DNA from: Candidatus Uhrbacteria bacterium
Lineage (GTDB): Bacteria; Patescibacteriota; Patescibacteriia; UBA9934
Assembly (NCBI GenBank): GCA_963822405.1
Contig: CAWGHH010000001.1
Location: 293,373-357,372, forward strand
Length of the DNA stretch: 64,000 nt
Direction of reading: 5' to 3'
Under the pieces are notes generated by a model. That model did no database searches, was not told the origin of the DNA, and was given only the letters and a program-made list of their open reading frames with translations. The position numbers were made by a program, and so were the translations under genes. How positions within the stretch are numbered: the first letter of the stretch is position 1; each line of letters opens with the position of its first letter. Of this stretch, positions 4,492 through 40,200 are shown piece after piece.

Positions 4492-4494
4492 AGG

Positions 4495-7321: not shown

Positions 7322-8404
7322 ATGTTGCTCACCATTTTTATTTTTCTTTTAGTTCTTTCTTTGCTTGTTGTTGTTCATGAGCTTGGCCACTATATTGCGG
7401 CGCGGCAGATGGGGATGGATGTGGAGGAGTTTGGGTTTGGTTTTCCGCCACGGTTGTTTGGGCGGAAGGATAAGAATGGCATGATGTGGAGCGTAAACTT
7501 GATTCCGCTTGGTGGTTTTGTGAAGCTAAAGGGTGAGAATGGCGAGAACAGACATGAGACTGGAGCCTTTGCACATAAGAGCATTCCGGCACGTCTGTAT
7601 GTTTTGTTCGCTGGCGTAATCATGAACTTTTTGTTAGCCTGGGTTTTATTCTCGGCCGGTTTTTTGTTCGGCCTCCCGTCAATTATTGAGGGAATAAATT
7701 TTAAGTCGGCCATTATTTCTAATCGCGCCGTGAACGTGATGCAGGTTCTCCCGGATTCGCCAGCGGCTCAAGCGGGAATTGCTGAGGGGGATCAGCTAGT
7801 TACAGTCGACGGCCAAATTTATTCTACCGGTGAAGAAACTCGCACAGCCTTGGCGCCACATGCGGACGGTTCGCCGATTGCCATCACTTTCAAGCATGAC
7901 GGAAAACTTGTTCGCGCTGACATGGTTCCAGAATTTAATGCAGAGGCTGACAAGGCAATCATCGGCGTCGCTTTAGTTGAAACCGGAACCGTTCGCTTTC
8001 CGTTTTACATCGCGCCAATCAAAGGACTTGAGACAACAGCTGGCATGAGTTATGACGTAGTTGGCGCTTTTGCTGGCTTGATTGCCGGCGTATTCCAGCA
8101 TAAGAACGTGGCAGCCGAACTATCTGGTCCAATTGGTATTGCTAATTTAACTGGTCAAGTCGCTCGCCTGGGCTTCTGGCATTTGGTCCAGTTTGCAGCC
8201 ATGTTGTCAGTAAACCTCATGGTTTTGAACGCCTTACCGTTCCCCGCGCTTGATGGTGGCCGAGCCCTGTTTGTCGCCATTGAAGGCATCCGCCGAAAGC
8301 CAAACAGCCTTCAGTTTGAACAAGCTGCCCACACTATTGGCTTTGCGTTGTTGATCTTGCTGGTATTGTTTGTTACATATAAAGATATTGTGAAGTTATT
8401 TTAG
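7322..8404 (+). CDS. rseP: RseP-like site-2 protease (M50 family, PDZ domain)
   Basis: 360 aa. HEXXH in the first TM segment (VVVHELGHYIAARQMG). PDZ-like middle segment. C-terminal TM helices. Confidence 0.8.
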   Translation: MLLTIFIFLLVLSLLVVVHELGHYIAARQMGMDVEEFGFGFPPRLFGRKDKNGMMWSVNLIPLGGFVKLKGENGENRHETGAFAHKSIPARLYVLFAGVIMNFLLAWVLFSAGFLFGLPSIIEGINFKSAIISNRAVNVMQVLPDSPAAQAGIAEGDQLVTVDGQIYSTGEETRTALAPHADGSPIAITFKHDGKLVRADMVPEFNAEADKAIIGVALVETGTVRFPFYIAPIKGLETTAGMSYDVVGAFAGLIAGVFQHKNVAAELSGPIGIANLTGQVARLGFWHLVQFAAMLSVNLMVLNALPFPALDGGRALFVAIEGIRRKPNSLQFEQAAHTIGFALLILLVLFVTYKDIVKLF

Positions 8405-8427
8405 GGTGTAGGGTGTAGCGTGTAGGA
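8402..8427. repeat. left inverted repeat of GT-rich element (TAGGGTGTAGGGTGTAGCGTGTAGG); TAG stops in all three frames; includes the rseP stop codon
   Basis: The reverse complement CCTACACGCTACACCCTA is an exact 18-mer match to the right-end copy at 12841-12858. TAG occurs at offsets 0, 7, 14 and 21. Confidence 0.7.
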
Positions 8428-8437
8428 AGAAGGGAGT

Positions 8438-8848
8438 ATGAAAATACAATCGTACGAAGATCTTGAAGTGTGGAAAAAGTCGATGGATCTCGTCGAGAAG
8501 ATTTATTTGATTACTAAGATGTTTCCGACGGATGAGCGGTTTGGGTTGATCTCGCAGATGCAACGAGCCGCCGTTTCAATTCCAAGTAACATTGCTGAAG
8601 GTTATCGACGTCGAGGAAGAGGGGACTATCTTAAATTTCTTGGGTACGCATATGGTTCGGGAGCTGAGCTAGAAACGCAACTCGAAATTTCCTTTAGATT
8701 GAAGTACTGTATGGAGGCTCGATACACAGAGACAAAATCTTTGCTAACAGAAGTCATGAAAATGTTTAATGTCATGATGTGGCGTCTTGAATCCACCCGC
8801 CCATCTGCGACACCCTACACCCCACGCCCTACCCCCTATGATAAATAA
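8438..8848 (+). CDS. four-helix-bundle protein (TIGR02436 / 23S rRNA intervening-sequence protein family)
   Basis: 136 aa. LEVWKKSMDLVEKIYLITKMFPTDERFGLISQMQRAAVSIPSNIAEGYRRRGRGDYLKFLGYAYGSGAELETQL is the hallmark of the IVS-type four-helix-bundle family. Flanked by inverted GT-rich repeats. Confidence 0.8.
   Translation: MKIQSYEDLEVWKKSMDLVEKIYLITKMFPTDERFGLISQMQRAAVSIPSNIAEGYRRRGRGDYLKFLGYAYGSGAELETQLEISFRLKYCMEARYTETKSLLTEVMKMFNVMMWRLESTRPSATPYTPRPTPYDK
8812..8840. repeat. right inverted repeat of GT-rich element (CGACACCCTACACCCCACGCCCTACCCCCTATG), ending in the pheS ATG
   Basis: CA-rich complement of the left repeat. Near-identical copies at 12828-12860 and 38426-38459. The terminal ATG at 8838-8840 starts pheS. 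Confidence 0.7.
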
Positions 8849-10383: not shown

Positions 10384-12810
10384 ATGAACATTCTCGCTTC
10401 GTACAACTGGATTAGAGAGTACCTCAACACGACTTTATCAGCCGACGAGTTCGCAAAAGAGCTGTCACTCAAATCCATGTCCGTTGAAAAAATCGACGCT
10501 CTTTGGGGTAAGTTTGAACACATGGTAGTCGGCGTCATTAAGGAAATCAAAGCGCATCCAAATGCGAATAAACTTCGTATTGCGGTAACCGACATTGGCG
10601 ACAAGACCGTCGAGATCGTCTGCGGAGGATCGAATCTAGAAGTCGGCCAGCGCGTATTTGTCGCACTTCCTGGTGCGAAAGTTAAGTGGCACGGCGAAGG
10701 TGAACTGGTCACGCTCGCTGAAGTAGAAATTCGCGGTGTCAAAAGCATTGGCATGATTTGCGCGCCAGCCGAAGTCGGGTTCGACAAAATTCCTGCGGGC
10801 GATCATGAGATTTGGGACTTGTCGAAAATCACGGACGCAAAAGCTGGCACATTAATCGTTGACGCGCTCGAACTCCAGGACACGATTTTTGACATCGAGG
10901 TCACAACAAACCGCCCAGACTGCATGAGCATTATGGGTCTTGCAAGTGAAGGCGCTGCAGCTGTAGACGGTCATTTCGGTTTCGCTCCTCCCCCTCCACG
11001 CAGTGGAGGGGGTAAGGGGGGAGGACAAACCATTAGCGTGTCGATCGAGTCAAAGAAGTGTTCGCGCTACATGGCGGCCGTAGTTAAGAACGTCAAAGTC
11101 GGTCCATCACCTTGGTGGCTCCAAAAGAAGTTGCTTCTCGCCGGTCATCGTCCAATTAACAACATTGTCGACATCACTAATTTGGTTTTACACGAACTTG
11201 GCCAACCCCTGCATGCATTCGACGCGTCGAAAATTCGCGGTAATCAAATTATTGTTCGTGATGCAAAGAAGGGCGAGAAGATGAAAGCTCTGGACAACAA
11301 AGAATACACGCTCTCAAAGTCTAATTTGGTAATTGCTGACGCCGAAGGGCCAATGGCTGTTGCTGGCGTAATGGGCGGGGAAGTGAGTTCGACAACTAAC
11401 GAAACAACCACAGTCGTCTTTGAAGCAGCGACATTTGATGCCGTATCGGTTCGTCGTACGGCTCGTGATCTGAACTTGTATTCTGACTCGCAACTTGTTT
11501 TTGAAAAAGGTTTATCTACCCAGGCTGTACCAATTGCCATGGCGCGAGCGCTTGAGCTGGTCGAGCAACTAGCCGGGGGAGTTGTCGAGGGTTTGACTGA
11601 TGTTCAACCGAAGGCTTATAAGCCGCTTGTTTTCAAGACCTCGACCAAGAAAATCCGTTCTAGAATTGGCGTTGATGTTTCTGATGAGCAAATTCAAAAG
11701 ATTCTAACAAAGCTCGGCTTCATGCTTGAGGTCAAGGGCTCGACCATCACGGCAACGATTCCTTTCTGGCGCGATCATGACATTGAATCGGAGGTCGACC
11801 TGACCGAAGAAGTCGCTCGCATGTACGGCTATCACAACATGCCGTCGATTCTTCCTGCCGTTACTCCGCCTCCAGCTGTCGACGATATTGCTGTAGTTTG
11901 GGAACGCAAACTTAAGCGCTTACTCGCCTCACTCGGTTACACTGAATTCTTCGGAACGTCGCTCATTGACGGTCGGGATCTTGAGCGTTTCGGTATCACG
12001 CCGCTCGACGCTGTCAAAATCTTGAACCCGCTGGCCGAGGACTTGGCCTACATGCGCCCGACGCTCATTCCGTCGATCTTACGTGACATCGAAAAGAATC
12101 AGGCAACTACCGGCTCGGCCAATATTTTCGAATTATCTCGTGTGCATCTCCCCGACACCCTACACGCTACCCCCTACGCCCTTCCTCTCGAACAGTATCG
12201 CTTAGCTATCGCCGACTATGGCTATGACAACTCCGAAGCCGCTTTTATGGGTCTCAAGGGCACGCTTGAACGACTCGGCAAAGAAACTGGCATTACTTTC
12301 TCTCTTACTCGCGTGAACGAGGCGCCACGTTTCCATCCTGGTCGGGCGGCTGATATTCACGCTGAACTAAACGGCGTTCGAACTCTCGCTGGCATGATGG
12401 GGGAGATTTCACCGGCCGTAGAAAGTGCTTTTGGTCTAGAGAAGCAAGTATTCTTGATCGATCTCAACCTTGAGGCACTTCTTCCGCACCTCAAAAAGTC
12501 TTTGCGCTACGAGCCTCTCACGTCTTTCCCCGTTTCTCGTCGCGATATCTCGTTTGTTGTTAATGAACGCATCGCCTTTGAGGACCTAACATCAGTAATT
12601 GGTGCCTCAACAACTTTACAACTCCACAACTCCATAACTCTCGTCGACATCTACCGCGGTGCCGGCGTAGACAATGGCAAAAAGTCTTTGACGCTATCCT
12701 TAACCTTCTCCGCGGCCGATAGAACCCTAACCAGCGATGAGGTCGAATCCGAAATTAAACGCATTACCACAGCTCTCGAGGGCAAATTCGGCGCAACCAT
12801 GCGTGGGTAG
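10384..12810 (+). CDS. pheT: phenylalanine--tRNA ligase beta subunit
   Basis: 808 aa. N-terminal tRNA-binding (OB) domain (EIVCGGSNLEVGQRVFVALPG). B3/B4 and B5 domains. FELSRVHLP motif. C-terminal FDX-like domain. Confidence 0.85.
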   Translation: MNILASYNWIREYLNTTLSADEFAKELSLKSMSVEKIDALWGKFEHMVVGVIKEIKAHPNANKLRIAVTDIGDKTVEIVCGGSNLEVGQRVFVALPGAKVKWHGEGELVTLAEVEIRGVKSIGMICAPAEVGFDKIPAGDHEIWDLSKITDAKAGTLIVDALELQDTIFDIEVTTNRPDCMSIMGLASEGAAAVDGHFGFAPPPPRSGGGKGGGQTISVSIESKKCSRYMAAVVKNVKVGPSPWWLQKKLLLAGHRPINNIVDITNLVLHELGQPLHAFDASKIRGNQIIVRDAKKGEKMKALDNKEYTLSKSNLVIADAEGPMAVAGVMGGEVSSTTNETTTVVFEAATFDAVSVRRTARDLNLYSDSQLVFEKGLSTQAVPIAMARALELVEQLAGGVVEGLTDVQPKAYKPLVFKTSTKKIRSRIGVDVSDEQIQKILTKLGFMLEVKGSTITATIPFWRDHDIESEVDLTEEVARMYGYHNMPSILPAVTPPPAVDDIAVVWERKLKRLLASLGYTEFFGTSLIDGRDLERFGITPLDAVKILNPLAEDLAYMRPTLIPSILRDIEKNQATTGSANIFELSRVHLPDTLHATPYALPLEQYRLAIADYGYDNSEAAFMGLKGTLERLGKETGITFSLTRVNEAPRFHPGRAADIHAELNGVRTLAGMMGEISPAVESAFGLEKQVFLIDLNLEALLPHLKKSLRYEPLTSFPVSRRDISFVVNERIAFEDLTSVIGASTTLQLHNSITLVDIYRGAGVDNGKKSLTLSLTFSAADRTLTSDEVESEIKRITTALEGKFGATMRG
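12152..12182. repeat. in-frame copy of the GT/CA-rich repeat inside pheT (CCGACACCCTACACGCTACCCCCTACGCC)
   Basis: Shares CGACACCCTAC and ACGCTACNCCCTA with the right-end repeats at 8812 and 12828. Encodes PDTLHATPYALP in PheT. Confidence 0.55.
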
Positions 12811-12827: not shown

Positions 12828-12860
12828 CGACACCCTACTCCCTACACGCTACACCCTATG
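12828..12860. repeat. solo right-end repeat (CGACACCCTACTCCCTACACGCTACACCCTATG) after the pheT stop, ending in the ATG of the next gene
   Basis: Near-identical to 8812-8840 and 38426-38459. A degenerate TAG-containing stretch (GGGTAGTGGTATTATTTAGTAAA) immediately precedes it. Confidence 0.65.
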
Positions 12861-13172: not shown

Positions 13173-13193
13173 GAAGCGCATATATGATCGAAC

Positions 13194-17921: not shown

Positions 17922-17924
17922 CCT

Positions 17925-18419
17925 ATGGAAGATCAACCAAACAATGAAATCGTTATCTATACCGGGGACGGCGGTCAACCCGTTATTCAGGTGCGTATTG
18001 TGGGGGAGACAGTCTGGCTAACTCAGGCGCAGCTGGCTGAGCTTTTCGGCACAACCAAGCAGAATATTAGCCTTCACATACAAAATATTTTTGAGGAGGG
18101 CGAGCTGGCTCCCCGAGCAACTGTCAAGGAATACTTGATAGTTCAAACAGAGGGAAATAGAGAGGTTTCCCGCCAAATAGATCATTACAATCTCGACCTC
18201 ATTATATCCGTTGGATATCGAATAAAATCCCAAATTGCGACACATTTTAGACAATGGGCCACGGCGCGGCTTCGGGAATATATTGTCAAAGGATTTACGA
18301 TGGATGACGAGCGTTTGGAAAACACTGGTGGCCAGTTGCGCAGATTCCTATATAAGTATAACTTCGAGCTAATCACCCATTTTTTTCAATGTTTTCCACG
18401 CCTTCTTCGTTGTGGATAA
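17925..18419 (+). CDS. RhuM-family virulence-protein N-terminal fragment (truncated paralog of the 29947-30912 RhuM-Doc protein)
   Basis: 164 aa. DLIISVGYRIKSQIATHFRQWATARLREYIVKGFTMDDERL aligns with AIISVGYRVNSVTATKFRQWATKTLRQHITKGYTINPKVI at 29947+. Lacks the C-terminal half. Confidence 0.5.
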   Translation: MEDQPNNEIVIYTGDGGQPVIQVRIVGETVWLTQAQLAELFGTTKQNISLHIQNIFEEGELAPRATVKEYLIVQTEGNREVSRQIDHYNLDLIISVGYRIKSQIATHFRQWATARLREYIVKGFTMDDERLENTGGQLRRFLYKYNFELITHFFQCFPRLLRCG

Positions 18420-21532: not shown

Positions 21533-22776
21533 CAAACAATCGATCAAAAATCGAAAAATTAATTTCTGAACTCTGCCCGAACGGGGTGGAGTTTAAGGAG
21601 TTGGGTGAACTTGGTGATTTTTATGGAGGACTTACTGGAAAAAGTAAAGAGGATTTTAGCAATGGCAACGCAAAATTTATCACTTACATGAATATTTTTT
21701 CTAATATTGCCGTTGATACTGATGTAAATATTTTTGTAAAAATGGAGCAGGAGGAAAAGCAAAATAGAATTCAATACGGCGACGTTTTGTTTACAGGTTC
21801 GTCAGAAACACCGGACGAGTGTGGAATGTCCTCTGTTTTAACAAAGAAAATTGATGAGCCGCTGTATCTAAACAGTTTCTGTTTCGGCTTTCGCCCGAAT
21901 GACAAGAATTTGTTGTTGCCCGAGTTTTCTAAATATTTGTTTAGAGATGAACAGATGAGAAAACAGATTGCGAAAACTGCCAGTGGAGTGACGAGATTTA
22001 ATGTCTCAAAAAAGCGTTTTGCAAAAATGACAATCCCTCTCCCACCCCTTGCAATCCAAAAAGAAATCGTCCGTGTGCTAGACTCTTTCACGGAGCTTGA
22101 GGCGGAGCTTGAGGCGGAGCTTGAGGCGGAGCTTGAGGCAAGGAAGAGTCAATATGAACACTATCGTACTGAGCTTTTGACGTTTGGGGTTGGGGTTGAG
22201 CTTAAGGAGCTGGGTGATGTAGCGGGTTATTCCAAGCTTCGAATAGGTGCCACCGAATTAAATTGCGATAATTTTGTAGGTGTAGATAATTTACTTACCA
22301 ACAAACAGGGAAAGACAGTTTCAAGTTATGTACCAACAGCTGGTAAACTGACTCGTTTCGAAACAGGTGACATTCTGCTCGGAAATATTCGTCCATACCT
22401 GAAGAAGATTTGGCTGGCAACGAATGAGGGAGGGGCGAGTGGCGATGTTTTGGTTGTTAGTATCAAGGACGAGAAAAGAAAATACTTGCTATCGGAGTTT
22501 TTGTATTACATGCTTTCTTCGGATAATTTTTTCAATTACGACATGCAGCATGCGAAAGGTGCAAAAATGCCACGTGGAAATAAGGATGCTATTCTACAGT
22601 TTAAAGTCCCAATTCCGTCGATGGCGGAGCAAGAACGTATCGTGTCGATCCTCGACAAATTCGATGCTTTGGTGAACGATATCTCTGTTGGTCTGCCGGC
22701 GGAGATTAGGGCCAGAAGACAGCAGTATGAGTATTATCGGAATAAGCTATTGAGCTTTAGGGAGAAAACTAAATAG
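21529..22776 (+). CDS. hsdS: type I restriction-modification system specificity subunit (two TRDs)
   Basis: 415 aa. Central conserved LPPLAIQKEIVRVLDSFTELEA...RKSQYEHYRTELL and C-terminal IPSMAEQERIVSILDKFDALVNDISVGLPAEIRARRQQYEYYRNKLLSF, the standard HsdS coiled-coil conserved regions. Confidence 0.85.
   Translation: MTNNRSKIEKLISELCPNGVEFKELGELGDFYGGLTGKSKEDFSNGNAKFITYMNIFSNIAVDTDVNIFVKMEQEEKQNRIQYGDVLFTGSSETPDECGMSSVLTKKIDEPLYLNSFCFGFRPNDKNLLLPEFSKYLFRDEQMRKQIAKTASGVTRFNVSKKRFAKMTIPLPPLAIQKEIVRVLDSFTELEAELEAELEAELEARKSQYEHYRTELLTFGVGVELKELGDVAGYSKLRIGATELNCDNFVGVDNLLTNKQGKTVSSYVPTAGKLTRFETGDILLGNIRPYLKKIWLATNEGGASGDVLVVSIKDEKRKYLLSEFLYYMLSSDNFFNYDMQHAKGAKMPRGNKDAILQFKVPIPSMAEQERIVSILDKFDALVNDISVGLPAEIRARRQQYEYYRNKLLSFREKTK
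22093..22140. repeat. perfect 12-bp tandem repeat x4 (GAGCTTGAGGCG; last copy ends GCA) in the central spacer of hsdS, encoding (ELEA)4
   Basis: Read directly: gagcttgaggcg gagcttgaggcg gagcttgaggcg gagcttgaggca. Confidence 0.85.
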
Positions 22777-22845: not shown

Positions 22846-25800
22846 ATGAAAATGAAAAAATATAACCTTGTCGCTGAGGGCGCGCAGAGTACTGTTGTTT
22901 CGGAATATACGCCGGATAATAAGAGGGCTTCGCATTACCAGAGTGAGGCGGAGCTTGAGCGGGCGTTTGTGAAGCAGCTTGAGGGGCAGGCGTATGAATA
23001 TGTCACCATTACTTCGGAGGAGGATCTCGTTATTAATTTGAGAAAACAGCTCGAGAAGCTAAATGATTTTTCGTTTACAGATGCGGAGTGGGATAGATTT
23101 TTTAAGAACGAGATTGCCAATCCCAATCAGAGTATCGAGGAGAAAACGAAGACCATTCAGGAGGATCATGTGAAGATACTTACACGTGATGACGGAGCGG
23201 TGAAGAATATTTATCTTCTGAAGAAAGATAACATTCACAACAATTCACTCCAGGTCATCAATCAATACGCTACTGACGAGGGGCAGCGAAGTAATCGGTA
23301 TGATGTAACGGTCTTGGTGAACGGGCTACCGATGGTGCATATTGAGCTGAAGCGTCGTGGAGTGGCCATTCAGGAGGCGTTCAATCAGATTAATCGGTAT
23401 CACCGTGAAAGTTTTTGGGCCGCAGCTGGACTTTTTGAATATGTGCAGCTGTTTGTTATTTCTAACGGTACGCACACAAAGTATTACAGTAACACTACTC
23501 GCGCTCAGCATGTAAAAGATAGTGTCGGGGGTGCGGCAAAGAAAGGAAAAAGGACAAGTAATAGTTTTGAATTTACCAGCTGGTGGGCAGACGCCACTAA
23601 TCGTCCCATCACCGATTTAATGGACTTCGCCAAAACCTTTTTTGCAAAGCACGCGTTGCTGAATATCTTGACTCGATATTGTGTCTTCACGAGTGACCAC
23701 TTGTTGCTAGTAATGCGTCCATACCAAATTGTCGCGACCGAACGCATTCTTAGCCGCATTGAAATCAGCACGAATTATAGGAAGCTGGGAACCGTTGAGG
23801 CTGGTGGCTATGTTTGGCACACCACCGGATCAGGAAAGACTTTAACAAGCTTTAAGACGGCTCAGTTGGCAAGCAAACTGCCTCATGTAGACAAAGTGCT
23901 TTTCGTGGTAGACCGCAAAGATTTGGATTACCAAACCATGCAGGAGTATGACAAGTTTGAGAAGGGGGCGGCGAATAGCAACGCGAGCACCGCGATTCTT
24001 AAGCGTCAGATGGAAGATGCGAATTCGCGCATCATCGTGACCACTATTCAGAAGCTTGATCGCTTCATCGGCCGAAATTCTAAACACGAAATCTTTGATG
24101 GCCACGTCGTGATTATTTTTGACGAATGTCACCGTTCACAGTTTGGTGATATGCATACCGCAATCACGAAGGCATTTAAGAATTACCATCTCTTCGGTTT
24201 TACTGGCACGCCAATCTTTGCGGCCAACGCTTCTGCCGGTGGTCATCCTGATTTGAGGACAACAGAACAGGCCTTTGGCGAGAAACTTCATACCTACACC
24301 ATCGTCGATGCTATTGCGGATAAAAATGTTTTGCCATTTAAGGTTGATTACGTTTCTACGGTTCGTGAAGCTGAGAACATTGAGGATAAAGCAGTGAACG
24401 ATATTGACCGTGAGGCCGTTTTGTCCGCACCGGAACGATTATCGAATATTGTCGAGTATATTCGGGAACATTTCGACCAGAAAACAAAGCGAAACAGCTT
24501 CTATCAGTTGAAAGACAGGCGATTGGCTGGGTTTAATTCGATCTTTGCTGTTTCTTCTATTGAAATGGCCAAGAGATACTACGCTGAGTTCAAGAAGCAA
24601 CTCGCTGGTGTCCCAGGTGACAAGCAATTAAAAATCGCAACTATCTTTAGTTTTGGAGTGAATGATGAAGATGCTGATGGGATGATCGATGAAAATTCGG
24701 AAGACACGAGCGGTCTAGATGTGAGCTCACGTGATTTCTTGGAGAATGCGATCAAAGATTACAATGTCATGTTCGGAGCCTCGTACGACACCTCTTCTGA
24801 TAAATTTCAGAACTACTATAAGGACGTGAGTCAACGCGTGAAAAATCGAGAGATAGATGTACTCATCGTGGTGAACATGTTCTTGACCGGTTTTGATGCG
24901 ACAACGTTGAACACTTTGTGGGTTGATAAGAATCTTCGATTGCATGGATTGGTTCAGGCGTTTTCGCGCACGAACCGCATTCTTAATAGCGTTAAGACGT
25001 TCGGAAACATCGTTTGTTTCCGTAACCTAGAGAAGGCGACGAATGAGGCGATTGCGTTATTTGGTGACAAAGAAGCTAGCGGTATCGTTCTTCTTAAGGC
25101 GTACGCTGATTATTACAATGGCTATAAGAATGACGGCACAGAGGTGCGCGGTTACGAAAGTCTGGTAAAGGAATTGCAGGAAAAGTTCCCCGTTGGCGAG
25201 AGAATTCTTGGTGAACAGGATCGGAAGGACTTTATTAGGTTATATGGTGCGATTTTGCGTGTTCGGAATATCCTCACCACATTCGATGAATTTGTGGGTA
25301 ATGAGATTCTGACCGAGCGCGACGTGCAGGACTATCACAGTGCATATATTGATCTATACAATGAATTCCGCAAGCAAGTGGAGGGGGAGAAGGAGAACGT
25401 GAATGATGATGTAGTTTTTGAAATGGAGTTGATTAAACAAATCGAGATCAATATTGATTATGTGATCGGACTCATTAAAAAGTATCACGAAGGTCACACG
25501 AAGGATCGAGAGCTACTCGTTGATATTAACAAGGCGATTGATTCTAGTGTTGAATTACGTAATAAAAAAGATCTTATCAATCAATTCATCACCAGACTTG
25601 ATGTTCATTCTGTCGTTGAAGATGACTGGCAGAAGTTTGTGGATGAGAAGAAAGTTGAGGAGCTGGATCAGATTATCTCCAATGAAGGGCTCGACCACGA
25701 CGCAACGTATAAATTTGTGCAAAATGCGTTCCGTAACGGGGATATCGTCGGTACCGGAACCGCAATCGCCAAAATAATACCGCCGGTAACACGTTTTTCT

Positions 25801-25902
25801 CCGGGCGGTGAACGTACAAAGAAGCGCGAGAGCGTATTGGGGAAATTAACACATTTCTTTGAGCGATTCTTTGATATTTCGGGTGGTAAGTTTTCAGATT
25901 GA
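22846..25902 (+). CDS. hsdR: type I restriction enzyme R subunit (helicase/endonuclease)
   Basis: 1018 aa. N-terminal PD-(D/E)xK region (VLVNGLPMVHIELK). Walker A HTTGSGKTLTS. DEAH-like VIIFDECHRSQ. Helicase C domain. Confidence 0.9.
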   Translation: MKMKKYNLVAEGAQSTVVSEYTPDNKRASHYQSEAELERAFVKQLEGQAYEYVTITSEEDLVINLRKQLEKLNDFSFTDAEWDRFFKNEIANPNQSIEEKTKTIQEDHVKILTRDDGAVKNIYLLKKDNIHNNSLQVINQYATDEGQRSNRYDVTVLVNGLPMVHIELKRRGVAIQEAFNQINRYHRESFWAAAGLFEYVQLFVISNGTHTKYYSNTTRAQHVKDSVGGAAKKGKRTSNSFEFTSWWADATNRPITDLMDFAKTFFAKHALLNILTRYCVFTSDHLLLVMRPYQIVATERILSRIEISTNYRKLGTVEAGGYVWHTTGSGKTLTSFKTAQLASKLPHVDKVLFVVDRKDLDYQTMQEYDKFEKGAANSNASTAILKRQMEDANSRIIVTTIQKLDRFIGRNSKHEIFDGHVVIIFDECHRSQFGDMHTAITKAFKNYHLFGFTGTPIFAANASAGGHPDLRTTEQAFGEKLHTYTIVDAIADKNVLPFKVDYVSTVREAENIEDKAVNDIDREAVLSAPERLSNIVEYIREHFDQKTKRNSFYQLKDRRLAGFNSIFAVSSIEMAKRYYAEFKKQLAGVPGDKQLKIATIFSFGVNDEDADGMIDENSEDTSGLDVSSRDFLENAIKDYNVMFGASYDTSSDKFQNYYKDVSQRVKNREIDVLIVVNMFLTGFDATTLNTLWVDKNLRLHGLVQAFSRTNRILNSVKTFGNIVCFRNLEKATNEAIALFGDKEASGIVLLKAYADYYNGYKNDGTEVRGYESLVKELQEKFPVGERILGEQDRKDFIRLYGAILRVRNILTTFDEFVGNEILTERDVQDYHSAYIDLYNEFRKQVEGEKENVNDDVVFEMELIKQIEINIDYVIGLIKKYHEGHTKDRELLVDINKAIDSSVELRNKKDLINQFITRLDVHSVVEDDWQKFVDEKKVEELDQIISNEGLDHDATYKFVQNAFRNGDIVGTGTAIAKIIPPVTRFSPGGERTKKRESVLGKLTHFFERFFDISGGKFSD

Positions 25903-27492: not shown

Positions 27493-27514
27493 ATTGATTT
27501 TATTCACGCTTATA

Positions 27515-27650
27515 GCCCCAAAACCGTGAAAAAGTAGTAAAAAATGGCATTCTGTCACGGTTATGGCTCGTAAATCGTGACAAAAGTGCATTTTATTGCA
27601 TTCTGTCACGGTTATGTTGCCAAAACCGTGACAGTAGTGTATAATGCTGA
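27515..27650 (+). promoter_or_regulatory. promoter (TTGCCA-N17-TATAAT) with multiple CGTGACA-core operator-like repeats upstream of the second Fic gene
   Basis: 19-mer GCATTCTGTCACGGTTATG occurs exactly twice (27547-27565 and 27599-27617). Inverted partner AAAACCGTGACAG (27622-27634) sits in the spacer. A further half-site AAATCGTGACAAAAG lies at 27573-27587. TATAAT at 27640-27645. Confidence 0.45.
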
Positions 27651-27653
27651 TAT

Positions 27654-28538
27654 ATGGCAAAAACGTTGGGTTCTTATAAAAAGATCAGTATATTGCGCGA
27701 ACGGTACTATCAGGTAGCAACGGGTAAAGATGCACTTTTGAAGCTTATTGCTGAGGTGGAAGTGGCGGAGCAGGTTTATAACTCAAATGCTATTGAGAAT
27801 AGCACTCTTAGTCTTGAAGAGACGGAAAAGATTCTTTTGCAAATTGATCTGGATCGGTACGTGGAAGGACGGGAGATTTTTGAGGCTAAGAACTTGGCGC
27901 GTGTTGTGGGCTATATTGATCACAAGGCGAAAGAGCAGGAATTGACGCTTGATGTCATGTTGTCACTTCATCAGATGCTGATCTTGAATATTCAAGATGA
28001 TATTGCTGGTAGATTCAGGAACGAAAAAGAATTTGTTCGCGTGGGCAGCTATATCGCGCCTAACCCGAAAGAAGTGGTTGGGCTTCTTGAAAAGATGCTC
28101 GCCGAATACAATGCTTCAAGTCACGAGAATATTATTAAGCGTATCGCTCGCCTACATTTAACATTTGAGCATATCCATCCATTTGTTGACGGGAATGGTC
28201 GCATCGGTCGAGTAATCAGTAATTATCTTCTTCTCCGAGAAGGCTTCGTGCCGATCAATATTAAGTTTATCGATCGGGACATGTACTATGAAGCATTTAA
28301 GGAATTCGATACTAAAGGAGAGACTAGGGTGATGGAGGAAATTGTTGGAAAGGCGTTGACTAATAGTTATCACAAACGACTTGCGTATCTAGAGGGGGCG
28401 GAAATAATGACACTAACTGAATACGGAAAAAAGAATAAGATTTCACGGACGAATTTAGTGAATAAAGCTAGCCGTCAAACAATCGAGGCGTTTTTGGAAA
28501 AAGGTATTTGGAAAATCGGAGTCAAACATGGCGTATAG
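27654..28538 (+). CDS. Fic family protein
   Basis: 294 aa. Fic motif HPFVDGNGRIGRVISNYLL. Confidence 0.8.
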   Translation: MAKTLGSYKKISILRERYYQVATGKDALLKLIAEVEVAEQVYNSNAIENSTLSLEETEKILLQIDLDRYVEGREIFEAKNLARVVGYIDHKAKEQELTLDVMLSLHQMLILNIQDDIAGRFRNEKEFVRVGSYIAPNPKEVVGLLEKMLAEYNASSHENIIKRIARLHLTFEHIHPFVDGNGRIGRVISNYLLLREGFVPINIKFIDRDMYYEAFKEFDTKGETRVMEEIVGKALTNSYHKRLAYLEGAEIMTLTEYGKKNKISRTNLVNKASRQTIEAFLEKGIWKIGVKHGV

Positions 28539-28551
28539 TGTTGGTTAGCCT

Positions 28552-29916
28552 ATGCTCTCCAAATCCTCTTTCATGCAGTTTCTCCGGTGTAGTTGCGAGC
28601 TGTGGCTGTATAAGCAACGGCCGGATTTGGCGCCGGAGTTTGATGAGGCGACCTTGAGAGTTTTTGCGACGGGTAATGAGGTAGACAGCTGGGCGCAGAA
28701 GCTGTACCCCAAGGCGGTGAATGTGATGGGGTTTGGGAAGAGGGGAGCGGAGGATATGAAGAAGGCGATTGCTCTTGGCGCAAAGGCGTTATTACAGCCG
28801 ACTTTTATTGTGAATGCGTTTGGGGGAGAGATTACCTGTAGAGCTGACATCATGAAGAAAAATAGTGACGATTCTTGGGATCTTCTAGAGGTAAAAAGCA
28901 CCACGGAGGTGAAGAAAGAGCACATCATGGATATGGCGTTTCAACGTATAGTCCTTGAGGAAGCCGGATTGAAGATTCGAAAGACTCTTCACGTCCACAT
29001 CGACAATCAATATGTTCGAGCGGGAGAAATTGAGCCAGAGAAGTTGTTCGCGCGTACAGATGTAACTCATGAGGTTGAGGAGCTATTGCCATTGTGTCGA
29101 AAAGAAATTCCGCGTGCGCTCTCTGTGCTCGATTGGGGGAAGGAACCGAACCTCGACATCATCAATAACTGTACTGACCCGGAGAAATGCGAATTCCGAG
29201 CATGTATTTTACAGGCGATGGGGGAGGAGGACGAGACGTACAGGATTAGTCCTGCCAACCCAAATTTGAAGATTGATAAGACGGCCATTAAAGAAGAGCT
29301 CGACAGCCTAACTTATCCTCTCTACTTTTTAGATTACGAAACATGGAATCCTGCTATTCCGGCTTTTGATGGCTACAAGCCGTATCAGCAGTGCGTGTTT
29401 CAATATTCAATCCATATTTTGAAATCACCAAAGGCCAAGCTAGAACACGTTGAGGTTTTGGTTGACGAGTTAGTTGATCCGGCGCCGATTATTGCAAAAG
29501 CGCTGGCCGAGCATATCGGTCCGACGGGCAGTGTCATTTCTTGGAACATGATTTTCGAGGCTTCTCGAAATGAAGAACTCGGCGACCTCGTTCCTGAATA
29601 TGCTGATCAACTACGAAGCATTAACGAACGGATGTTCGACCTCATGATGATCGTGAAAAAGGGTTACTACAAAGACGCACGCTTTGGGGGCAGTGCATCC
29701 TTGAAAAAAGTTCTCCCAGTTCTGTGTCCCGAACTTTCTTACGACTCTCTGGCTATCCATGAAGGTGGCACCGCCTCCGCCAGCTGGCCTGTCCTCACGA
29801 ACCCGTCGACCACGCCTGCCGACAAAGCTCAACTCCGCAAAGACATGCTCGCTTATTGCGAACTAGATACATTGGCGATGGTGGAAATTTATAAGAAGTT
29901 TTTAACGATTGTGTAA
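28552..29916 (+). CDS. DUF2779-like protein: N-terminal Cas4/RecB-type PD-(D/E)xK nuclease fused to C-terminal DEDDy-type 3'-5' exonuclease-like domain
   Basis: 454 aa. Cys-rich N-terminus. RADIMKKNSDDSWDLLEVKST (D...E-V-K). C-terminal LYFLDYETWNP (Exo I-like D-x-E) and YCELDTLAMVEIY (Y-x3-D). Confidence 0.45.
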   Translation: MLSKSSFMQFLRCSCELWLYKQRPDLAPEFDEATLRVFATGNEVDSWAQKLYPKAVNVMGFGKRGAEDMKKAIALGAKALLQPTFIVNAFGGEITCRADIMKKNSDDSWDLLEVKSTTEVKKEHIMDMAFQRIVLEEAGLKIRKTLHVHIDNQYVRAGEIEPEKLFARTDVTHEVEELLPLCRKEIPRALSVLDWGKEPNLDIINNCTDPEKCEFRACILQAMGEEDETYRISPANPNLKIDKTAIKEELDSLTYPLYFLDYETWNPAIPAFDGYKPYQQCVFQYSIHILKSPKAKLEHVEVLVDELVDPAPIIAKALAEHIGPTGSVISWNMIFEASRNEELGDLVPEYADQLRSINERMFDLMMIVKKGYYKDARFGGSASLKKVLPVLCPELSYDSLAIHEGGTASASWPVLTNPSTTPADKAQLRKDMLAYCELDTLAMVEIYKKFLTIV

Positions 29917-32069: not shown

Positions 32070-33026
32070 CTAATCCCGGCGAGTAATGGGGTGATGTCTT
32101 CTTGGTTTTCGTTTTGCGCAGAGCATAACCGGTTCCGCTTTTCCGATTGCATATGCGACGCTTATCAGGCACTCGTGCGCCTTGCCGGACCTCACGATGT
32201 CGACAGCGACTTCGCGGGCTTTGCGGGCGGCTGAGCGGTCGACCTTCGTCATGTCTTTGCCGGCCGTAGCTCCGCCTCCGTGAGCAACGATTCCACCGTA
32301 TGAATCGACAGCTAATTTTCGACCAGTGAGTCCAGTGTCGGCCGCGAATCCACCGATGACGAATTTGCCGGTTGGGTTTGTAAGAATCTCCATGTTTGGC
32401 GCGCGGAATTCCTCGGGGATAACGGGGAAGATTACTTTTTCAATGAGCGTTTTTCGAATCTCTTCTTGAGAAACGTTCTCGTCATGCTGGGTACTAATGA
32501 GAACGACGGTGACCTTTCCGTTCTCCATGGTGATTTGGGCTTTGCCGTCGGGGCGGAGCCAGGAGATAGGGCCGACATTGAAGTCGGCCCGTACTTCGCC
32601 CCGTCGGAGTTCGGTGAGTTTATCGGTTAATTGGCGAACAAAGACCAATCCCCGAGGCAGAAATTCCGGTGTTTCATCCGTCGCAAAGCCGTACATGATA
32701 CCTTGATCTCCTGCGCCACCGGTGTCGACACCCTGGGCGATGTCGGGGGATTGCGTAGTAATATGCTCGATAACTTTCAAAGTATCGTCGTAGCCAATAT
32801 CGTGATAGACCTTGAGCGCGACGGCTGAATAGTCGACTTTGGCCTTAGTAGTAATCTCGCCACCAAGGACAAGGAGACCGTGACTGCCGAAGGTTTCAAT
32901 GGCGACTCGACTATCCTTATCTTGCGCAACACACGCATCCAAAATTGCATCGGAAATCTGATCGCAGACTTTATCTGGGTGACCAATAGTGACGGATTCG
33001 ACTGTGTAGAGACGGGGAGTGAACAT
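32070..33026 (-). CDS. metK: S-adenosylmethionine synthetase, apparently C-terminally truncated (318 aa)
   Basis: GHPDKVCDQISDAILD. GGGAFSGKD-equivalent HGGGATAGKDMTKVDRSAA. Ends about 16 aa after AIGKAEPVML, whereas E. coli MetK continues about 75 aa beyond the equivalent AIGVAEPTSI. Confidence 0.8.
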   Translation of the reverse strand: MFTPRLYTVESVTIGHPDKVCDQISDAILDACVAQDKDSRVAIETFGSHGLLVLGGEITTKAKVDYSAVALKVYHDIGYDDTLKVIEHITTQSPDIAQGVDTGGAGDQGIMYGFATDETPEFLPRGLVFVRQLTDKLTELRRGEVRADFNVGPISWLRPDGKAQITMENGKVTVVLISTQHDENVSQEEIRKTLIEKVIFPVIPEEFRAPNMEILTNPTGKFVIGGFAADTGLTGRKLAVDSYGGIVAHGGGATAGKDMTKVDRSAARKAREVAVDIVRSGKAHECLISVAYAIGKAEPVMLCAKRKPRRHHPITRRD

Positions 33027-33160
33027 AAAAATAACGCCTCTTTGGGCGTCTAATAATAATTATCTGCCCCTTTCGGGCTGGAGTTAGCACCTTCTCGAGA
33101 GAGGGTTGCTGCCGTGTCATTGGGCCAGGACCCTCGACGGACTCTTGATATATTCAATTG
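33027..33160 (-). promoter_or_regulatory. SAM-I (S-box) riboswitch in the metK leader
   Basis: Minus-strand transcript reads UAUCAAGAGUCCGUCGAGGGUCCUGGCCCAAUGACACGGCAGCAACC...GAAGGUGCUAACUCCAGCCCGAAAGGGGCAGAUAA. This matches the S-box consensus elements: UCAAGAG, GAGGGA-like, UGGCCC, AUGA, GCAACC, GGUGCUAA, AGAUAA. A hairpin GACGCC-CAAA-GAGGCGU plus U-tract abuts the AUG and sequesters a GAGG Shine-Dalgarno. Confidence 0.7.
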
Positions 33161-33272: not shown

Positions 33273-33348
33273 TGGACCCAACGGGATTCGAACCCGTAAT
33301 TTCTGGATGACAATCCGGACAAGGTTAACCAATTACCTCCATAGGCCC
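33273..33348 (-). tRNA. tRNA gene or pseudo-tRNA (canonical acceptor, D and T arms; anticodon arm non-canonical; identity undetermined)
   Basis: Minus-strand read GGGCCUA-UG-GAGG-UAAUUGGUUAA-CCUU-G-UCCGGAUUGUCAUCCAG-AAAUU-ACGGG-UUCGAAU-CCCGU-UGGGUCC-A. The 7-bp acceptor has two G-U pairs. T-loop is GGUUCGAAUCC. The anticodon region does not form a 5-bp stem with a 7-nt loop; its best fold is GGAU/AUCC around a 4-nt loop. Confidence 0.5.
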
Positions 33349-37124: not shown

Positions 37125-38345
37125 ATGACCGCCTCTCCTCTGAAACGTCCACCAGCTCCGCCACCTCCACCTTCCACTAGGTACGGCGGTGCAAAGTTCG
37201 TAAACGCCGGTAAAAAGCCTTTATCTCGCTCGCTAAGACTCTATCAACGCATTGCGGTTGTCTTTGTTGGCGTCACTTTTCTTCTCCTTTTGTCAGTACT
37301 TTATTTGTCGGTTTCCAGGGCAACTATCAAGATTACTGCAAATCCAAAGTTAATCACCGTAAACGCCGTGGCTGACGTGGTGGCTAATCCAACTATTGAT
37401 GGCCAGATTGCTGGCGCAGTTAAAGAAAAAACGTTTACTGGTTCTAAAACTTTTACTTTGCCAAGCGAGGGTTCACAGGCTGTTGAAGCTAAGGCAACTG
37501 GAACAGTGACGATTACGAACACAACCACGAGCAATCAATTACTTGTGGCGACTACTCGAGTTTTGTCTGACACTGGCGTGTTGTTTAGACTCGACAAGGC
37601 TACAACTGTTCCAGCTAATGGCAAAGTAGACGTTATTGTTCATGCTGACGCTGCTGGAAAGAACGGGGAAATTGCCCCAGCCAAGTTTACTATCCCAGGC
37701 TTGAATGCCACGCTCCAAAAGCAAATTACTGGTTCGAGCGTTGCTCCAATGATTGGTGGCGTGGTGTATGTTCGATCATTGACTGATAAAGACATTGCAG
37801 ACGCTGTTTCAGCTTTGTCTACTGATCTAGTTAAGCAGGCCGGCGACGAATTTAGCCAAGGACTCGACGCTTCATTAAATGGCGTTTCCTTGAAGTCGAG
37901 CATCCTCGACCAAAAAACTGATGTTCCAGTTGGCACACAGACTGGCTCGTTTACTTTGACGTTATCAATGGATGTGACCGGCGTTTACTACCAGGGCGAC
38001 CTTGTGAAAACCTATGCGCAAAACTTATTCGAGAAGCGCATTCCAGAGGGCTACGAGGCGACTAAGATTAACCTAGATGGCATGCAAGCTAAAGTAGAAG
38101 CTTCAGACGCTAAGGTAGGCGAGGCACGCATTACAATCTACCTAGACGGCAACGCTCGTCTTTCTCTCGAATCTTCCGCCCTCAGTAAAGACCGCTTCAC
38201 TGGCCGCTCGCCAAACGAGGTTTTGACCCTTCTAAAATCAAACGAAGGCATCCGTGAAGTCACCGTATCTTTCACTCCATTCTGGCTGAAACGCGTACCG
38301 ACTTTGAAGGATCATATAAAGATTGAGATTGTTGATCCTAAATAG
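37125..38345 (+). CDS. hypothetical membrane-anchored extracytoplasmic protein (Pro-rich N-terminus, one TM helix, Thr/Val-rich beta-rich body)
   Basis: 406 aa. PPAPPPPPS. TM helix VVFVGVTFLLLLSVLYLSV. No catalytic motif. Its stop TAG is the first TAG of the following repeat. Confidence 0.35.
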   Translation: MTASPLKRPPAPPPPPSTRYGGAKFVNAGKKPLSRSLRLYQRIAVVFVGVTFLLLLSVLYLSVSRATIKITANPKLITVNAVADVVANPTIDGQIAGAVKEKTFTGSKTFTLPSEGSQAVEAKATGTVTITNTTTSNQLLVATTRVLSDTGVLFRLDKATTVPANGKVDVIVHADAAGKNGEIAPAKFTIPGLNATLQKQITGSSVAPMIGGVVYVRSLTDKDIADAVSALSTDLVKQAGDEFSQGLDASLNGVSLKSSILDQKTDVPVGTQTGSFTLTLSMDVTGVYYQGDLVKTYAQNLFEKRIPEGYEATKINLDGMQAKVEASDAKVGEARITIYLDGNARLSLESSALSKDRFTGRSPNEVLTLLKSNEGIREVTVSFTPFWLKRVPTLKDHIKIEIVDPK

Positions 38346-38372
38346 GGTGTAGGAAGTAGGGTGTGGGGTGTA
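38343..38372. repeat. left inverted repeat copy (TAGGGTGTAGGAAGTAGGGTGTGGGGTGTA)
   Basis: Same GGGTGTAGG family as 8402-8427. Contains multiple TAGs. Confidence 0.6.
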
Positions 38373-38425
38373 TCAGAACCATACACCTCACATTCTTTTC
38401 TTTTCACTCGCTTTTTGCTACCTTT

Positions 38426-38459
38426 CATACACCCTACTCCCTATACGCTACCCCCTATG
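38426..38459. repeat. right inverted repeat copy (CATACACCCTACTCCCTATACGCTACCCCCTATG), ending in the thrS ATG
   Basis: Near-identical to 12828-12860. Separated from the left copy by only about 53 bp. Confidence 0.65.
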
Positions 38460-40200
38460 TCCCCCCAAGAACTCGAGCATCGCCGACACTCACTTGCTCA
38501 CTTGCTTGCAGCTGCAGTCCTCGAGCTGTACCCAGATGCAAAGCGTACGATTGGCCCAGCGATCGACGATGGTTTTTATTATGATTTCCAGTTTTCGACG
38601 CCTATCTCGGAAACGGATTTGCCAGCCATTCAGAAGCAGATGCGCAAGATGTTGACCATGTTTAAGTCGTTCGATCGAACCGAGATCACTCGCGAAGAAG
38701 CTGAGAAATTGTTCGTCGATAATCCTTTCAAACTAGAGCTCATTCGTGAGTTCGCAACAGAGGGGCAGACTTTGTCGCTTTACACCTCCGGAACGTACGT
38801 CGACCTCTGTCGCGGCGGACATGATGAGGATCTGTCACATATTGATGTGAACTCGTTCAAGTTGTCTAAGCTCGCCGGCGCGTACTGGAGAGGTGACGAG
38901 AAGAACGCGCAGCTGACCCGCATTTACGGACTCGCGTTTGGTTCGGCCAAAGAACTTGAGGCTTATGAGAAGATGCAGGAAGAGGCTAAAAAGCGTGATC
39001 ACCGTAAGCTTGGCGTTGAGCTTGATCTCTTTGCGTTCTCACCACTCGTTGGTCCTGGTTTGCCGCTGTTCACTCCTCGAGGAACTCTCTTGCGCGAGGG
39101 ACTGACTAACTTCGTTTGGGCGCTCATGAAGCCATATGGCTATCAGAAAGTGAACATCCCACACATGGCTAAGGCTGATCTTTATAAGACTTCCGGCCAC
39201 TGGGATAAATTTGCGGACGACATCTTCCATGTTTCGAGCAAAAAAACAGATGAAATTTTCGTGTTGAAGCCAATGAACTGTCCGCACCACACCCAAATTT
39301 ACGCGTCAAAGCCTCGCAGCTATCGAGATCTTCCACTTCGGTTCTCCGAAGTTACGACTGTGTATCGCGACGAGAACACTGGCCAGCTCCAGGGCTTATC
39401 GAGAGTACGCTCGATCACGCAGGATGACGCTCACGTGTTCTGCCGAATGGATCAGGTCAAAGACGAGGCTAGAGCCATCTACGAGATCATCACGAAGTTC
39501 TATAAGGCGTTCGACATGCCACTCAAGATTCGGTTGTCGACTAATGATCCAGCCAAGCCAGAAGCATATCTTGGTGGTCCAGAAGTTTGGGAGAAGGCCG
39601 TTGGTACGCTCAAAGAATTGTTGACCGATCTCGGTCGCGAATACTTCATCGGGGTAGGGGAGGCGGCATTCTACTGGGCCGAAGCTCGACTTCATCGCTA
39701 CAGACGCAATCGGTCGTGAATGGCAGTTGGCTACAGTTCAGCTCGACTTTAATCTTCCGGAGCGTTTTGAGCTCGAGTACACAGATTCCGACAACACCAA
39801 GAAGCGTCCAGTCATGGTTCACCGCGCTATTCTTGGCTCCGTAGAGCGTTTCATCGGCATCATGATTGAGCACTACGCCGGCGCCTTCCCATTTTGGCTC
39901 GCCCCTGAACAGGTTCGCCTAGCCACAGTGAACGAAGCCTTCGCACCATTCGCCGTCGAACTCAGAAATGAGCTTGACGCCGCCGGTATCCGCGTTATGT
40001 TAGACGACTCCTCAGAAAAACTCGGCAAAAAAATCCGCGACGCCGCCATTGTCAAAGTCCCTTGGACGATCGTCATTGGCGAAAAAGAAGCTCAAGGTGG
40101 CGACTTCCAGGTGAAAGTCTTTGGATCAGAAAATCCGCTCAGCATCAGCCAAGCGGATCTCCTGACGCACGTAACCGACCTCTCTAAACTCCCTGTTTAA
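38457..40200 (+). CDS. thrS: threonine--tRNA ligase lacking the N-terminal TGS domain; reading frame interrupted by a +1 frameshift near 39675
   Basis: ORF-track 38361-39719 plus 39727-40200. Likely start MSPQELEHRRHS at 38457 (HxxxH zinc motif of the N2 domain). Class II motifs (NCPHHTQIY, QDDAHVF). After ...EAAFY the 0 frame reads WAEARLHRYRRNRS*, while the +1 frame reads GPKLDFIATDAIGREWQLATVQLDFNLPERFELEY, the conserved ThrRS sequence continuing into the anticodon-binding domain. Confidence 0.8.

Follow-up and report, generated by a model that had tools for sequence, protein, structure and literature searches.

A cargo-less inverted pair of heptamer arrays occupies the stop-to-start interval upstream of thrS in a Candidatus Uhrbacteria genome

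In a 64,000-nt stretch of the genome of a Candidatus Uhrbacteria bacterium (NCBI GenBank assembly GCA_963822405.1, contig CAWGHH010000001.1, positions 293,373 to 357,372; hereafter, the window), the interval between the stop codon of one gene and the start codon of thrS, which encodes threonyl-tRNA synthetase (ThrRS), is occupied by an inverted pair of heptamer arrays at 38343-38459. It is probable that this region is a member, lacking an open reading frame (ORF), of a genome-specific family of hairpin elements that are built like ribosomal RNA (rRNA) intervening sequences (IVSs) but lie in an mRNA context. The parts of this explanation differ in strength. The identity and the history of the element are highly probable, while a role for its stem in RNA processing, which is suggested by analogy with IVSs, is possible and is put forward tentatively.

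How is the element built? The left arm, TAGGGTGTAGGAAGTAGGGTGTGGGGTGTA (38343..38372, + strand), is a G-rich array of the heptamers TAGGGTG, TAGGAAG, TAGGGTG and TGGGGTG followed by TA; the TAG with which it opens doubles as the stop codon of the upstream gene. That gene (37125..38345, + strand) encodes a 406-aa protein of no Pfam family and has a TATAAT sequence just 5' of its ATG; its reading frame closes with ...DPK-TAG where the array begins. The right arm, CATACACCCTACTCCCTATACGCTACCCCCTATG (38426..38459, + strand), is C-rich and nearly G-free, and its final ATG is the start codon of thrS, which also lies on the + strand and whose product begins MSPQELEHRRHSLAHLL. Each arm has ~4 tandem heptamers, TAGGGTG on the left and CACCCTA, inverted, on the right, and by manual count the two arms are ~77% complementary. 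Between them lies a unique, pyrimidine-rich spacer of 53 nt with no ORF (38373..38425, + strand). Across the family, every frame of the left arms contains a TAG; stop codons are absent from the right arms, which have only one or two G residues. An earlier reading of this DNA from the letters alone (hereafter, the sequence-only reading) had reported the inverted-repeat pair, and its coordinates and sequences, its overlap with the stop codon and the ATG, and its cargo-free 53-nt spacer were all accurate. The heptamer nature of the arms, a degenerate third arm that forms an inner hairpin, and an insertion in thrS at 39674 were not mentioned there.

Two lines of evidence indicate that the repeat pair is not a product of chance. 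First, TAGGGTGTAGG has 14 matches in the window at ≤1 mismatch, grouped in six clusters, against an expectation of 0.30, and none of 100 shuffled sequences reaches 14. The clusters lie at 8402-8437 and 38343-38372 in the + orientation and at 8808-8840, 12153-12188, 12828-12860 and 38426-38459 as the complement, and all six contain heptamers at 7-nt spacing, with 3-5 units apiece. Second, the + strand RNA of 38335-38470 has a predicted folding energy of -42.9 kcal/mol, compared to -27.5 ± 3.5 kcal/mol for shuffled sequences (z = -4.4; 0 of 200 shuffles as good); the - strand fold is less distinctive (z = -1.8). In the predicted ensemble, the left and right arrays form an outer stem of ~17 pairs and the inner hairpin has ~9; overall, the outer stem is imperfect, with ~17-20 predicted pairs. 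In the inner, terminator-like hairpin (38358..38396, + strand), the left array's distal half pairs with CATACACCTCACATTCT, a degenerate copy of the right arm with which the spacer begins. The hairpin counts 16 pairs, G-U pairs included (six are G-C), has a 7-nt loop, and is followed by TTTCTTTTC; one terminator-like site was found in the region, as against 0.8 expected in shuffled sequences. In the folding model, the outer stem brings the UAG and the AUG to the base of one helix, with the AUG not buried.

The thrS-site arms are not the only members of the family in the window. Site A is an ORF-bearing element of 439 nt (8402..8840, + strand), in which arrays at 8402-8437 and 8808-8840 surround a PF05635 gene (8438-8848). 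The gene encodes a 136-aa "23S rRNA-intervening sequence protein" (Pfam E = 1.4e-38) that also matches bAvd weakly. A gene for an RseP-like protease (rseP-like) supplies the TAG at which the left array starts, and the right array ends in the ATG of pheS. The two arrays are predicted to pair across the 370-nt ORF in both the minimum-free-energy (MFE) and the centroid structure, with the UAG paired to the CUA of CUAUG. At site C (12828..12860, + strand), a right array stands alone; it closes with the ATG of a 104-aa ORF and is predicted to be unstructured (z = +0.6). Hence, arrays end exactly on the ATG of three genes in the window. Over their last 31 nt, the right arms at 12828-12860 and 38426-38459 agree, by eye, at 29 positions. 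A further array (12153..12188, + strand) lies in frame inside pheT, in a variable loop at about codons 590-601, where it encodes HLPDTLHATPYALPLEQ; at the same position in PheT, contig L228 has a different unit (AACCTGC AACCCGC AACCAGC) with the length of the protein unchanged.

Related genomes carry the same family with alleles of their own. L239, the relative with the closest PheS (95% identical), has a filled copy at the rseP-pheS junction (379-774) with a PF05635 gene that is only 63% identical to that of the window, and its arrays use the variant unit TAGGGAG/CTCCCTA, again running from stop codon to ATG. L239 also has an empty pair, at 1841-1911, that is made of its own TAGGGAG unit and spans from the pheS TAG to the pheT ATG. 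This pair folds with z = -5.2 and is predicted to pair the UAG with the CUA of CUAUG. Arms at different loci in L239 are identical at 31 of 36 nt, and its filled and empty copies share the unit variant, so that the unit has changed together in both. Since arms at different loci within one genome are near-identical, the arrays behave as dispersed copies of a family with genome-specific alleles rather than as independent products of slippage. In L204 (PheS 91% identical by alignment, 88% in the homologue listing), the rseP-pheS junction has a filled element like that of the window, with a cargo gene 91% identical. The same junction in L228 (92%) and in L229 and L230 (both 89%) has unrelated short hairpins and no gene. 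At the pheS-pheT junction, the window has a gene for a MazF/PemK-like toxin (9911-10294) in place of the empty pair of L239. At site C, the array is absent from L229, which has TGGTATTAT 9 nt before the ATG; compared to L229, the window has a C-rich array of ~30 nt inserted directly before the ATG. The junctions around pheS and pheT are hot spots. The hairpin families at these junctions in relatives include a GTCATTCTGAGCGGAGCGAAGAATC-type palindrome and arrays of the 9-mer AGTTAAAAA, both unrelated to the heptamers (L228, 5893-6000 and 7084-7184; L229, 5924-6000 and 7072-7207). After pheT in the window (12858-13910), there is a zeta-toxin gene with the 104-aa ORF before it.

What did the element replace at thrS? 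The locus of L201, from another sample (ThrRS 100% identical), has an identical hairpin. L216 (ThrRS 96% identical) instead has 230-300 bp containing a GC-rich terminator, a sigma-70-like promoter of the TTGACA type and a leader of ~170 nt. L202 (93%) and L203 (92%) are arranged like L216, with an additional 141-aa ORF on the opposite strand in L203, and L217 (86%) has an unrelated 42-nt spacer. In L216, L202 and L203, the upstream protein ends ...DPK-stop, ThrRS starts MSPQELEHRRH at the same codon as in the window, and there are no repeats. The 3' half of the L202 leader matches positions 157-216 of the T-box model RF00230 (23.9 bits, E = 1.3e-3), with a terminator following, and L216 and L203 carry the T-box core of L202, GGGTGGAACCACC. 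The relatives with 92-96% identity thus keep the same stop and start codons around a T-box-like leader, which shows that the hairpin is a recent gain that replaced the entire ancestral control region of 230-300 bp, from stop codon to start codon. It replaced the T-box and is not a form of it: although T-box leaders occupy the same position 5' of thrS in relatives, the window lacks their core, specifier and antiterminator features, RF00230 gives no match at the thrS site even at E ≤ 10, and the core GGTGGAACCGCG is not found in the window, L201 or L217. A scan of the 111-nt gap upstream of thrS detected no promoter-like site. Hence, an essential aminoacyl-tRNA synthetase gene exchanged its own promoter and a T-box-like attenuator for a hairpin within less than 4% protein divergence, and the window and its relatives form a natural before-and-after pair for the effects of such a hairpin on transcription, RNA processing and Shine-Dalgarno-independent translation in Patescibacteria.

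The T-box-like leaders are of interest in their own right. They lie at ~505-726 in L216 and at ~2790-3000 in both L202 and L203, and are also present 5' of thrS in L127, L130, L132, L146, L147, L149, L153, L154, L172 and L176. Indeed, among 58 more distant loci of the Candidate Phyla Radiation (CPR), 10 have the core GGTGGAACCGCG together with a terminator-like inverted repeat 5' of thrS. In these compact leaders, a terminator or a terminator-like inverted repeat follows the shared core GG(G)TGGAACC(A/G)C(C/G). No T-box reached the gathering threshold in the 17 loci scanned, which included L216, L202, L203, L127 and L130, and the L202 leader, the only one scored, is well under the Rfam gathering score (23.9 vs 93 bits). 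These leaders may be a divergent, short class of T-box that standard annotation has overlooked.

What could the element do? With the ancestral control region gone, thrS would now be co-transcribed with the upstream gene. In the joint transcript, a terminator-like hairpin would be nested in an imperfect stem of ~20 bp, and both the UAG and the AUG would stand at the foot of this one helix. RNase III cuts the stems of rRNA IVSs, and by analogy the stem at thrS may be an intercistronic processing site or a site of partial termination. After processing, thrS would retain a short, G-poor leader, which would suit the Shine-Dalgarno-independent initiation on which the majority of genes in this organism appear to rely; alternatively, the stem may juxtapose stop and start codons for reinitiation. 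A simple motif check detected Shine-Dalgarno-like motifs in only ~8 of 59 genes in the window, and TATAAT-like boxes lie ~6-12 nt 5' of the ATG of several genes. The closeness of these boxes and the scarcity of Shine-Dalgarno motifs suggest that leaderless mRNAs may be made.

Several considerations weigh against this explanation. All of the functional steps are inferred from sequence, predicted folds and analogy. The sole orthologous hairpin, that of L201, is identical and offers no covariation. An efficient inner terminator-like hairpin would starve the essential thrS gene of transcripts. No RNase III gene is among the 20 window ORFs that were scanned. The solo array at 12828-12860 and the in-frame array of pheT (12153-12188) are not explained by a function that depends purely on a hairpin. 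Lastly, the thrS AUG is ~80% unpaired in the predicted ensemble, and start-codon sequestration was rejected for thrS on this ground.

Two other explanations are compatible with the hairpin-family explanation and need not exclude it. In the first, the arrays are non-autonomous copies resembling transposable elements of the miniature inverted-repeat type (MITEs), which spread by copy-and-paste or gene conversion, perhaps relying on the resident PF05635 element, and serve no function in the host. The near-identity of arms across loci in one genome, in the window and in L239 alike, and the differences in presence among close relatives fit such spread. So does the behavior of the unit variant, which is common to the filled and empty pairs of each genome but already differs at 95% PheS identity, where the cargo genes are 63% identical. 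However, no transposase or recombinase was found, the interior is not conserved between copies, and solo arms exist. No target-site duplication is visible beyond a possible TA; at the thrS site there is at most TA on each side (aaaTA/GGG...CCC/TAtg), which is too short to serve as evidence. In addition, it is hard for random insertion without functional selection to yield arrays that repeatedly end on stop and start codons. Selfish copies of this kind are possible but doubtful. MITEs and repetitive extragenic palindromic (REP) elements share with the window arrays the form of short, dispersed, intergenic inverted repeats whose presence varies between strains, but the window arrays have no clear target-site duplication, conserved interior or transposase, and their arms are internally repetitive.

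In the second, the element is a translation device, in which the G-rich arm stops ribosomes in any frame, the G-free, C-rich arm serves as an unstructured standby leader, and the stem sets the UAG beside the AUG so as to couple termination to reinitiation, in an organism that makes little use of Shine-Dalgarno sites. The TAG codons in every frame of the left arms, the near absence of G from the right arms, the three arrays that end on an ATG, and the predicted pairing of UAG with CUAUG at site A and in L239 would all be accounted for, as would the lack of structure in the solo array. Furthermore, stop-start junctions of the form TAGCCTATG occur three times in the window compared to 0.5 expected (e.g., 4492-4500, 17919-17927 and 28546-28554), and the TAACTGA repeats of other bacteria end 1 nt before start codons (MacGregor 2015, PMC4679880). 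Nevertheless, the last heptamer is unpaired in the MFE register at the thrS site, and the arrays of other phyla lie 5' of ordinary Shine-Dalgarno sites. We consider a translation device unlikely, though worth keeping in view.

The remaining alternatives fare less well. The arrays could act as G-quadruplex (G4) or i-motif elements, in DNA or RNA, that modulate transcription, as has been proposed for GGGAATC repeats. They do resemble those repeats in being G-rich heptamers of ~4 units and in their placement (Rehm et al. 2015, PMC4692102). There are, however, three tracts of at least three G residues in each thrS-site arm, and only one of the six window arrays has four such tracts; the nearby complementary arm would favor a duplex. 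A G4 role is thus very unlikely. The same can be said, somewhat more strongly, of an excision footprint, i.e., that a PF05635-bearing element once stood at the thrS site and lost its cargo, leaving the arms. The arms do share a family with those that enclose the PF05635 gene at 8402-8840, and intergenic sites in this clade turn over rapidly. Set against this, the three relatives with 92-96% ThrRS identity have a T-box-like leader rather than a filled element, so that gain of a filled element and then loss of its cargo within less than 4% protein divergence would be unparsimonious, and a similarity comparison of the 53-nt spacer revealed no PF05635 remnant and no subterminal sequence of the filled element. 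Of what the sequence-only reading had proposed here, the description of an "empty copy" holds as far as membership in the repeat family goes and fails as regards excision of cargo. Its other option, a cargo-less variant of the element, agrees with the near-identity of the right arm to that of site C and with the filled and empty pairs of L239. The alignment with relatives that it suggested showed an identical hairpin in L201 and no repeats in L216, L202 or L203, and the search for its spacer elsewhere turned up no copy in the window or in ~240 loci, only scattered low-complexity 11-mer matches. Least likely of all, and not to be seriously expected, is a thrS-specific attenuator that replaced the T-box and is switched between terminator and antiterminator by a ligand or tRNA: the nested terminator-like hairpin and the alternative pairing partners of the left arm would suit one, but the same arrays precede pheS and a toxin-antitoxin-like ORF and flank the PF05635 gene, the T-box core is absent, and Rfam at gathering and permissive thresholds gives only generic hairpin-like matches at the thrS site.

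How does the hairpin family compare to known systems? Among the closest known systems are the G-rich heptamer repeats that Rehm et al. (2015, PMC4692102) reported from Xanthomonas and Nostoc, GGGAATC and GGGGA(C/T)T. These repeats prefer four units and lie between aligned ORFs; those on the coding strand overlap a stop codon or are ≤50 bp from it, and those on the non-coding strand precede a start codon by ≤50 bp. In all, 70-75 convergent inverted pairs were reported, with no function or mobile-element association found. The thrS-site element belongs to this intergenic G-rich class, agreeing with it in every aspect of position and departing from it in G-quadruplex potential. The 7-nt unit, the ~4 units per array, the co-oriented flanking genes, the stop/start placement and the convergent pairs are shared. 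However, the window unit TAGGGTG carries a stop codon, the ends of the window arrays coincide with stop and start codons, and a canonical G4 is impossible for most of the arrays. In build, the family mirrors the rRNA IVSs of Coxiella, Leptospira and Salmonella. The IVS in the 23S rRNA of Coxiella is 428 nt long, compared to 439 nt for the filled element of the window, and has an S23p ORF and a 28-bp terminal stem that is cut by RNase III (PMC4990558). In both, terminal inverted repeats can form a long stem whose loop may contain a PF05635/S23p ORF, versions lacking the ORF exist, and close relatives have the element only sporadically; the ORF is absent from the thrS site and present at 8438-8848. 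ORF-less IVS forms exist in Salmonella. Unlike IVSs, the window elements lie between protein-coding genes rather than in a helix of 23S or 16S rRNA, and their arms are tandem heptamers. Indeed, Rfam detected no rRNA in the window, and the thrS-site hairpin itself is flanked by protein-coding genes.

Two further families of heptamer repeats invite comparison. The TAACTGA repeats of Beggiatoaceae, Cyanobacteria and Bacteroidetes have stops in all frames, mostly end 1 nt before a start codon, and are associated with few Shine-Dalgarno sites (MacGregor 2015, PMC4679880). They share with the window arrays a tandem arrangement, stops in every frame, ends near start codons, rarity of Shine-Dalgarno sites and a patchy distribution across phyla, but they are almost always direct (there is a single inverted case), are not G-rich and have no described cargo gene. 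The short tandemly repeated repetitive (STRR) sequences of cyanobacteria, which Mazel et al. are said to have reported in 1990, are likewise dispersed tandem heptamers in intergenic DNA, and arrays of the CCCTACA type found here abound in cyanobacterial genomes. The described STRR units differ, however, and neither a stop/start geometry nor a cargo gene is known to have been described for them.

Are arrays and PF05635 genes associated more widely? A pattern search with the four right arms matched at least 120 loci from Cyanobacteria, Planctomycetota, Acidobacteriota, Bacteroidota, Nitrospirota, Armatimonadota and CPR, many of which consist of a short inverted pair around a gene-free loop of 20-40 nt. 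A hidden Markov model search for PF05635, which also covered ~86 CPR thrS loci, found the domain in 2 of the 120 pattern-matched loci listed (L039 and L119) besides the window copy; therefore, most arrays are cargo-less. The converse association is strong. The flanks of PF05635 genes were inspected in the window, CPR contigs, Microcystis, a high-GC metagenome-assembled genome and 18 plasmid loci from Cyanobacteria, Gemmatimonadota and Bacteroidota. All of these genes but one have short tandem arrays on at least one side; the exception is a CPR copy cut by a contig end, where only short complementary motifs were seen. The arrays are mostly inverted, purine-rich upstream and pyrimidine-rich downstream, and the unit varies by lineage (TAGGGTG, TAGGGAG, GGGAACA, CAGGAGT, AGGTGAC, GGGGTCG, TAGTGAG and others). 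For a quantitative comparison, 21 PF05635 genes from Patescibacteria, Cyanobacteria and Bacteroidota were set against 51 control genes of the window away from arrays, using ungapped inverted-repeat and period-7 scores. These scores replaced a shared-6-mer statistic, which was dropped for its background of ~4; a strict period-7 finder missed degenerate arrays in relatives, and those were read by eye. The control maximum is exceeded by 14 of the 21 genes for the inverted-repeat score (p ~2e-6), by 14 for the upstream period-7 score (p ~6e-8) and by 17 for the downstream period-7 score (p ~1e-9). Arrays also flank the PF05635 genes of three more loci read by eye, in Microcystis, in the high-GC genome and on a plasmid from Gemmatimonadota; in two of them the arrays are an inverted pair, and in the third they have a direct orientation. 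The association can also be found in published data: in the table of Rehm et al. (PMC4692102), GGGAATC array #15 lies six nt from bccP and overlaps the annotated start of XCC0516, which is the PF05635 protein of PDB 2gsc, although the link to PF05635 goes unremarked there.

The plasmid PF05635 genes sit between co-oriented operon genes, such as cas6-cas4 and cas10-cmr3, which is the same placement as in the window. Plasmids of Anabaena, Picosynechococcus and Pseudanabaena (L220, L222 and L223) have array-flanked PF05635 genes within CRISPR-Cas operons. This placement fits insertion between co-transcribed genes in a way that leaves the operon unbroken.

Could PF05635 proteins and inverted heptamer arrays form one widespread system, in which the protein recognizes its own flanking arrays and the ORF-less pairs are targets in trans? 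We regard this as speculative and improbable. A Mantel test for a cross-phylum link between cargo similarity and repeat unit gave r = 0.35 (p = 0.004), a value driven by close relatives, and the identity of the window cargo to cyanobacterial proteins flanked by GGGTGTA (39-41%) is no higher than that of an average pair (39%). If there were one system, perhaps one protein subunit would bind per 7-nt unit; two related PDB entries have five chains each, and the arrays have 4-5 units. The trans targets would then serve either transposase-free, MITE-like mobilization or RNA-level control of their neighbors. Such a system, if real, would explain in one step what the IVS proteins and the heptamer repeats of bacteria are for. 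Heptamer repeats (STRR, GGGAATC and TAACTGA) and PF05635 IVS proteins have both been without a function for decades, and to our knowledge they have been treated separately until now; a full-text literature search found no paper linking heptamer repeats to PF05635 or to an IVS-like architecture. The window links them by having arrays with and without the gene, running from stop to start between essential genes, and arrays turn up again beside PF05635 genes from several phyla in the small sample that was examined.

The thrS gene itself (38457..40200, + strand) encodes the tRNA_SAD (N2/SAD), class II core and anticodon-binding domains and no TGS domain, as the sequence-only reading had noted. A link between the missing domain and the repeat does not survive comparison, given that the relatives without the repeat start ThrRS at the same MSPQELEHRRH, an outcome that the sequence-only reading had named as evidence against its own view. 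The TGS Pfam domain is listed for none of the best 120 ThrRS homologues, of which the complete ones are nearly all 577-610 aa long and the closest named ones are annotated as Candidatus Uhrbacteria or Patescibacteria. Thus, a ThrRS of ~580 aa without TGS is normal for Uhrbacteria-like Patescibacteria and unrelated to the repeat, and loss of TGS as a peculiarity of the window gene was rejected on the basis of the same homologues. In the window, an extra C at 39674 (TTCTA-C-TGGGCC) splits thrS into 38457-39719 and 39727-40200. This base is the only difference from contig L201 over 1961 nt, and the ThrRS encoded there is intact, with 580 aa. The 1-nt insertion is an error of assembly or else a frameshift, private to the strain, in an essential gene.

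The window has several other features. At 27493-27634, just 5' of a Fic/DOC-family gene (27654-28538), there are three 51-nt direct repeats, each with an inverted TCACGGTTATGG...CCGTGACA, which could be an operator or iteron-like array. Tandem repeats of the 12-mer GGCGGAGCTTGA occur ~820 nt apart, at 22074-22150 and 22932-22996; they lie at the end of the ORF at 21529-22776 and at the start of the ORF at 22846-25902. An ARAGORN "tRNA-???" with a two-base anticodon at 33273-33348 (- strand) is probably spurious. Two Rfam matches are at gathering level: an S-adenosylmethionine (SAM) riboswitch at 33058-33154 (- strand, 59.3 bits), 5' of the gene at 32070-33026, and a DUF3800-V RNA at 14226-14321 (- strand, 55.4 bits).

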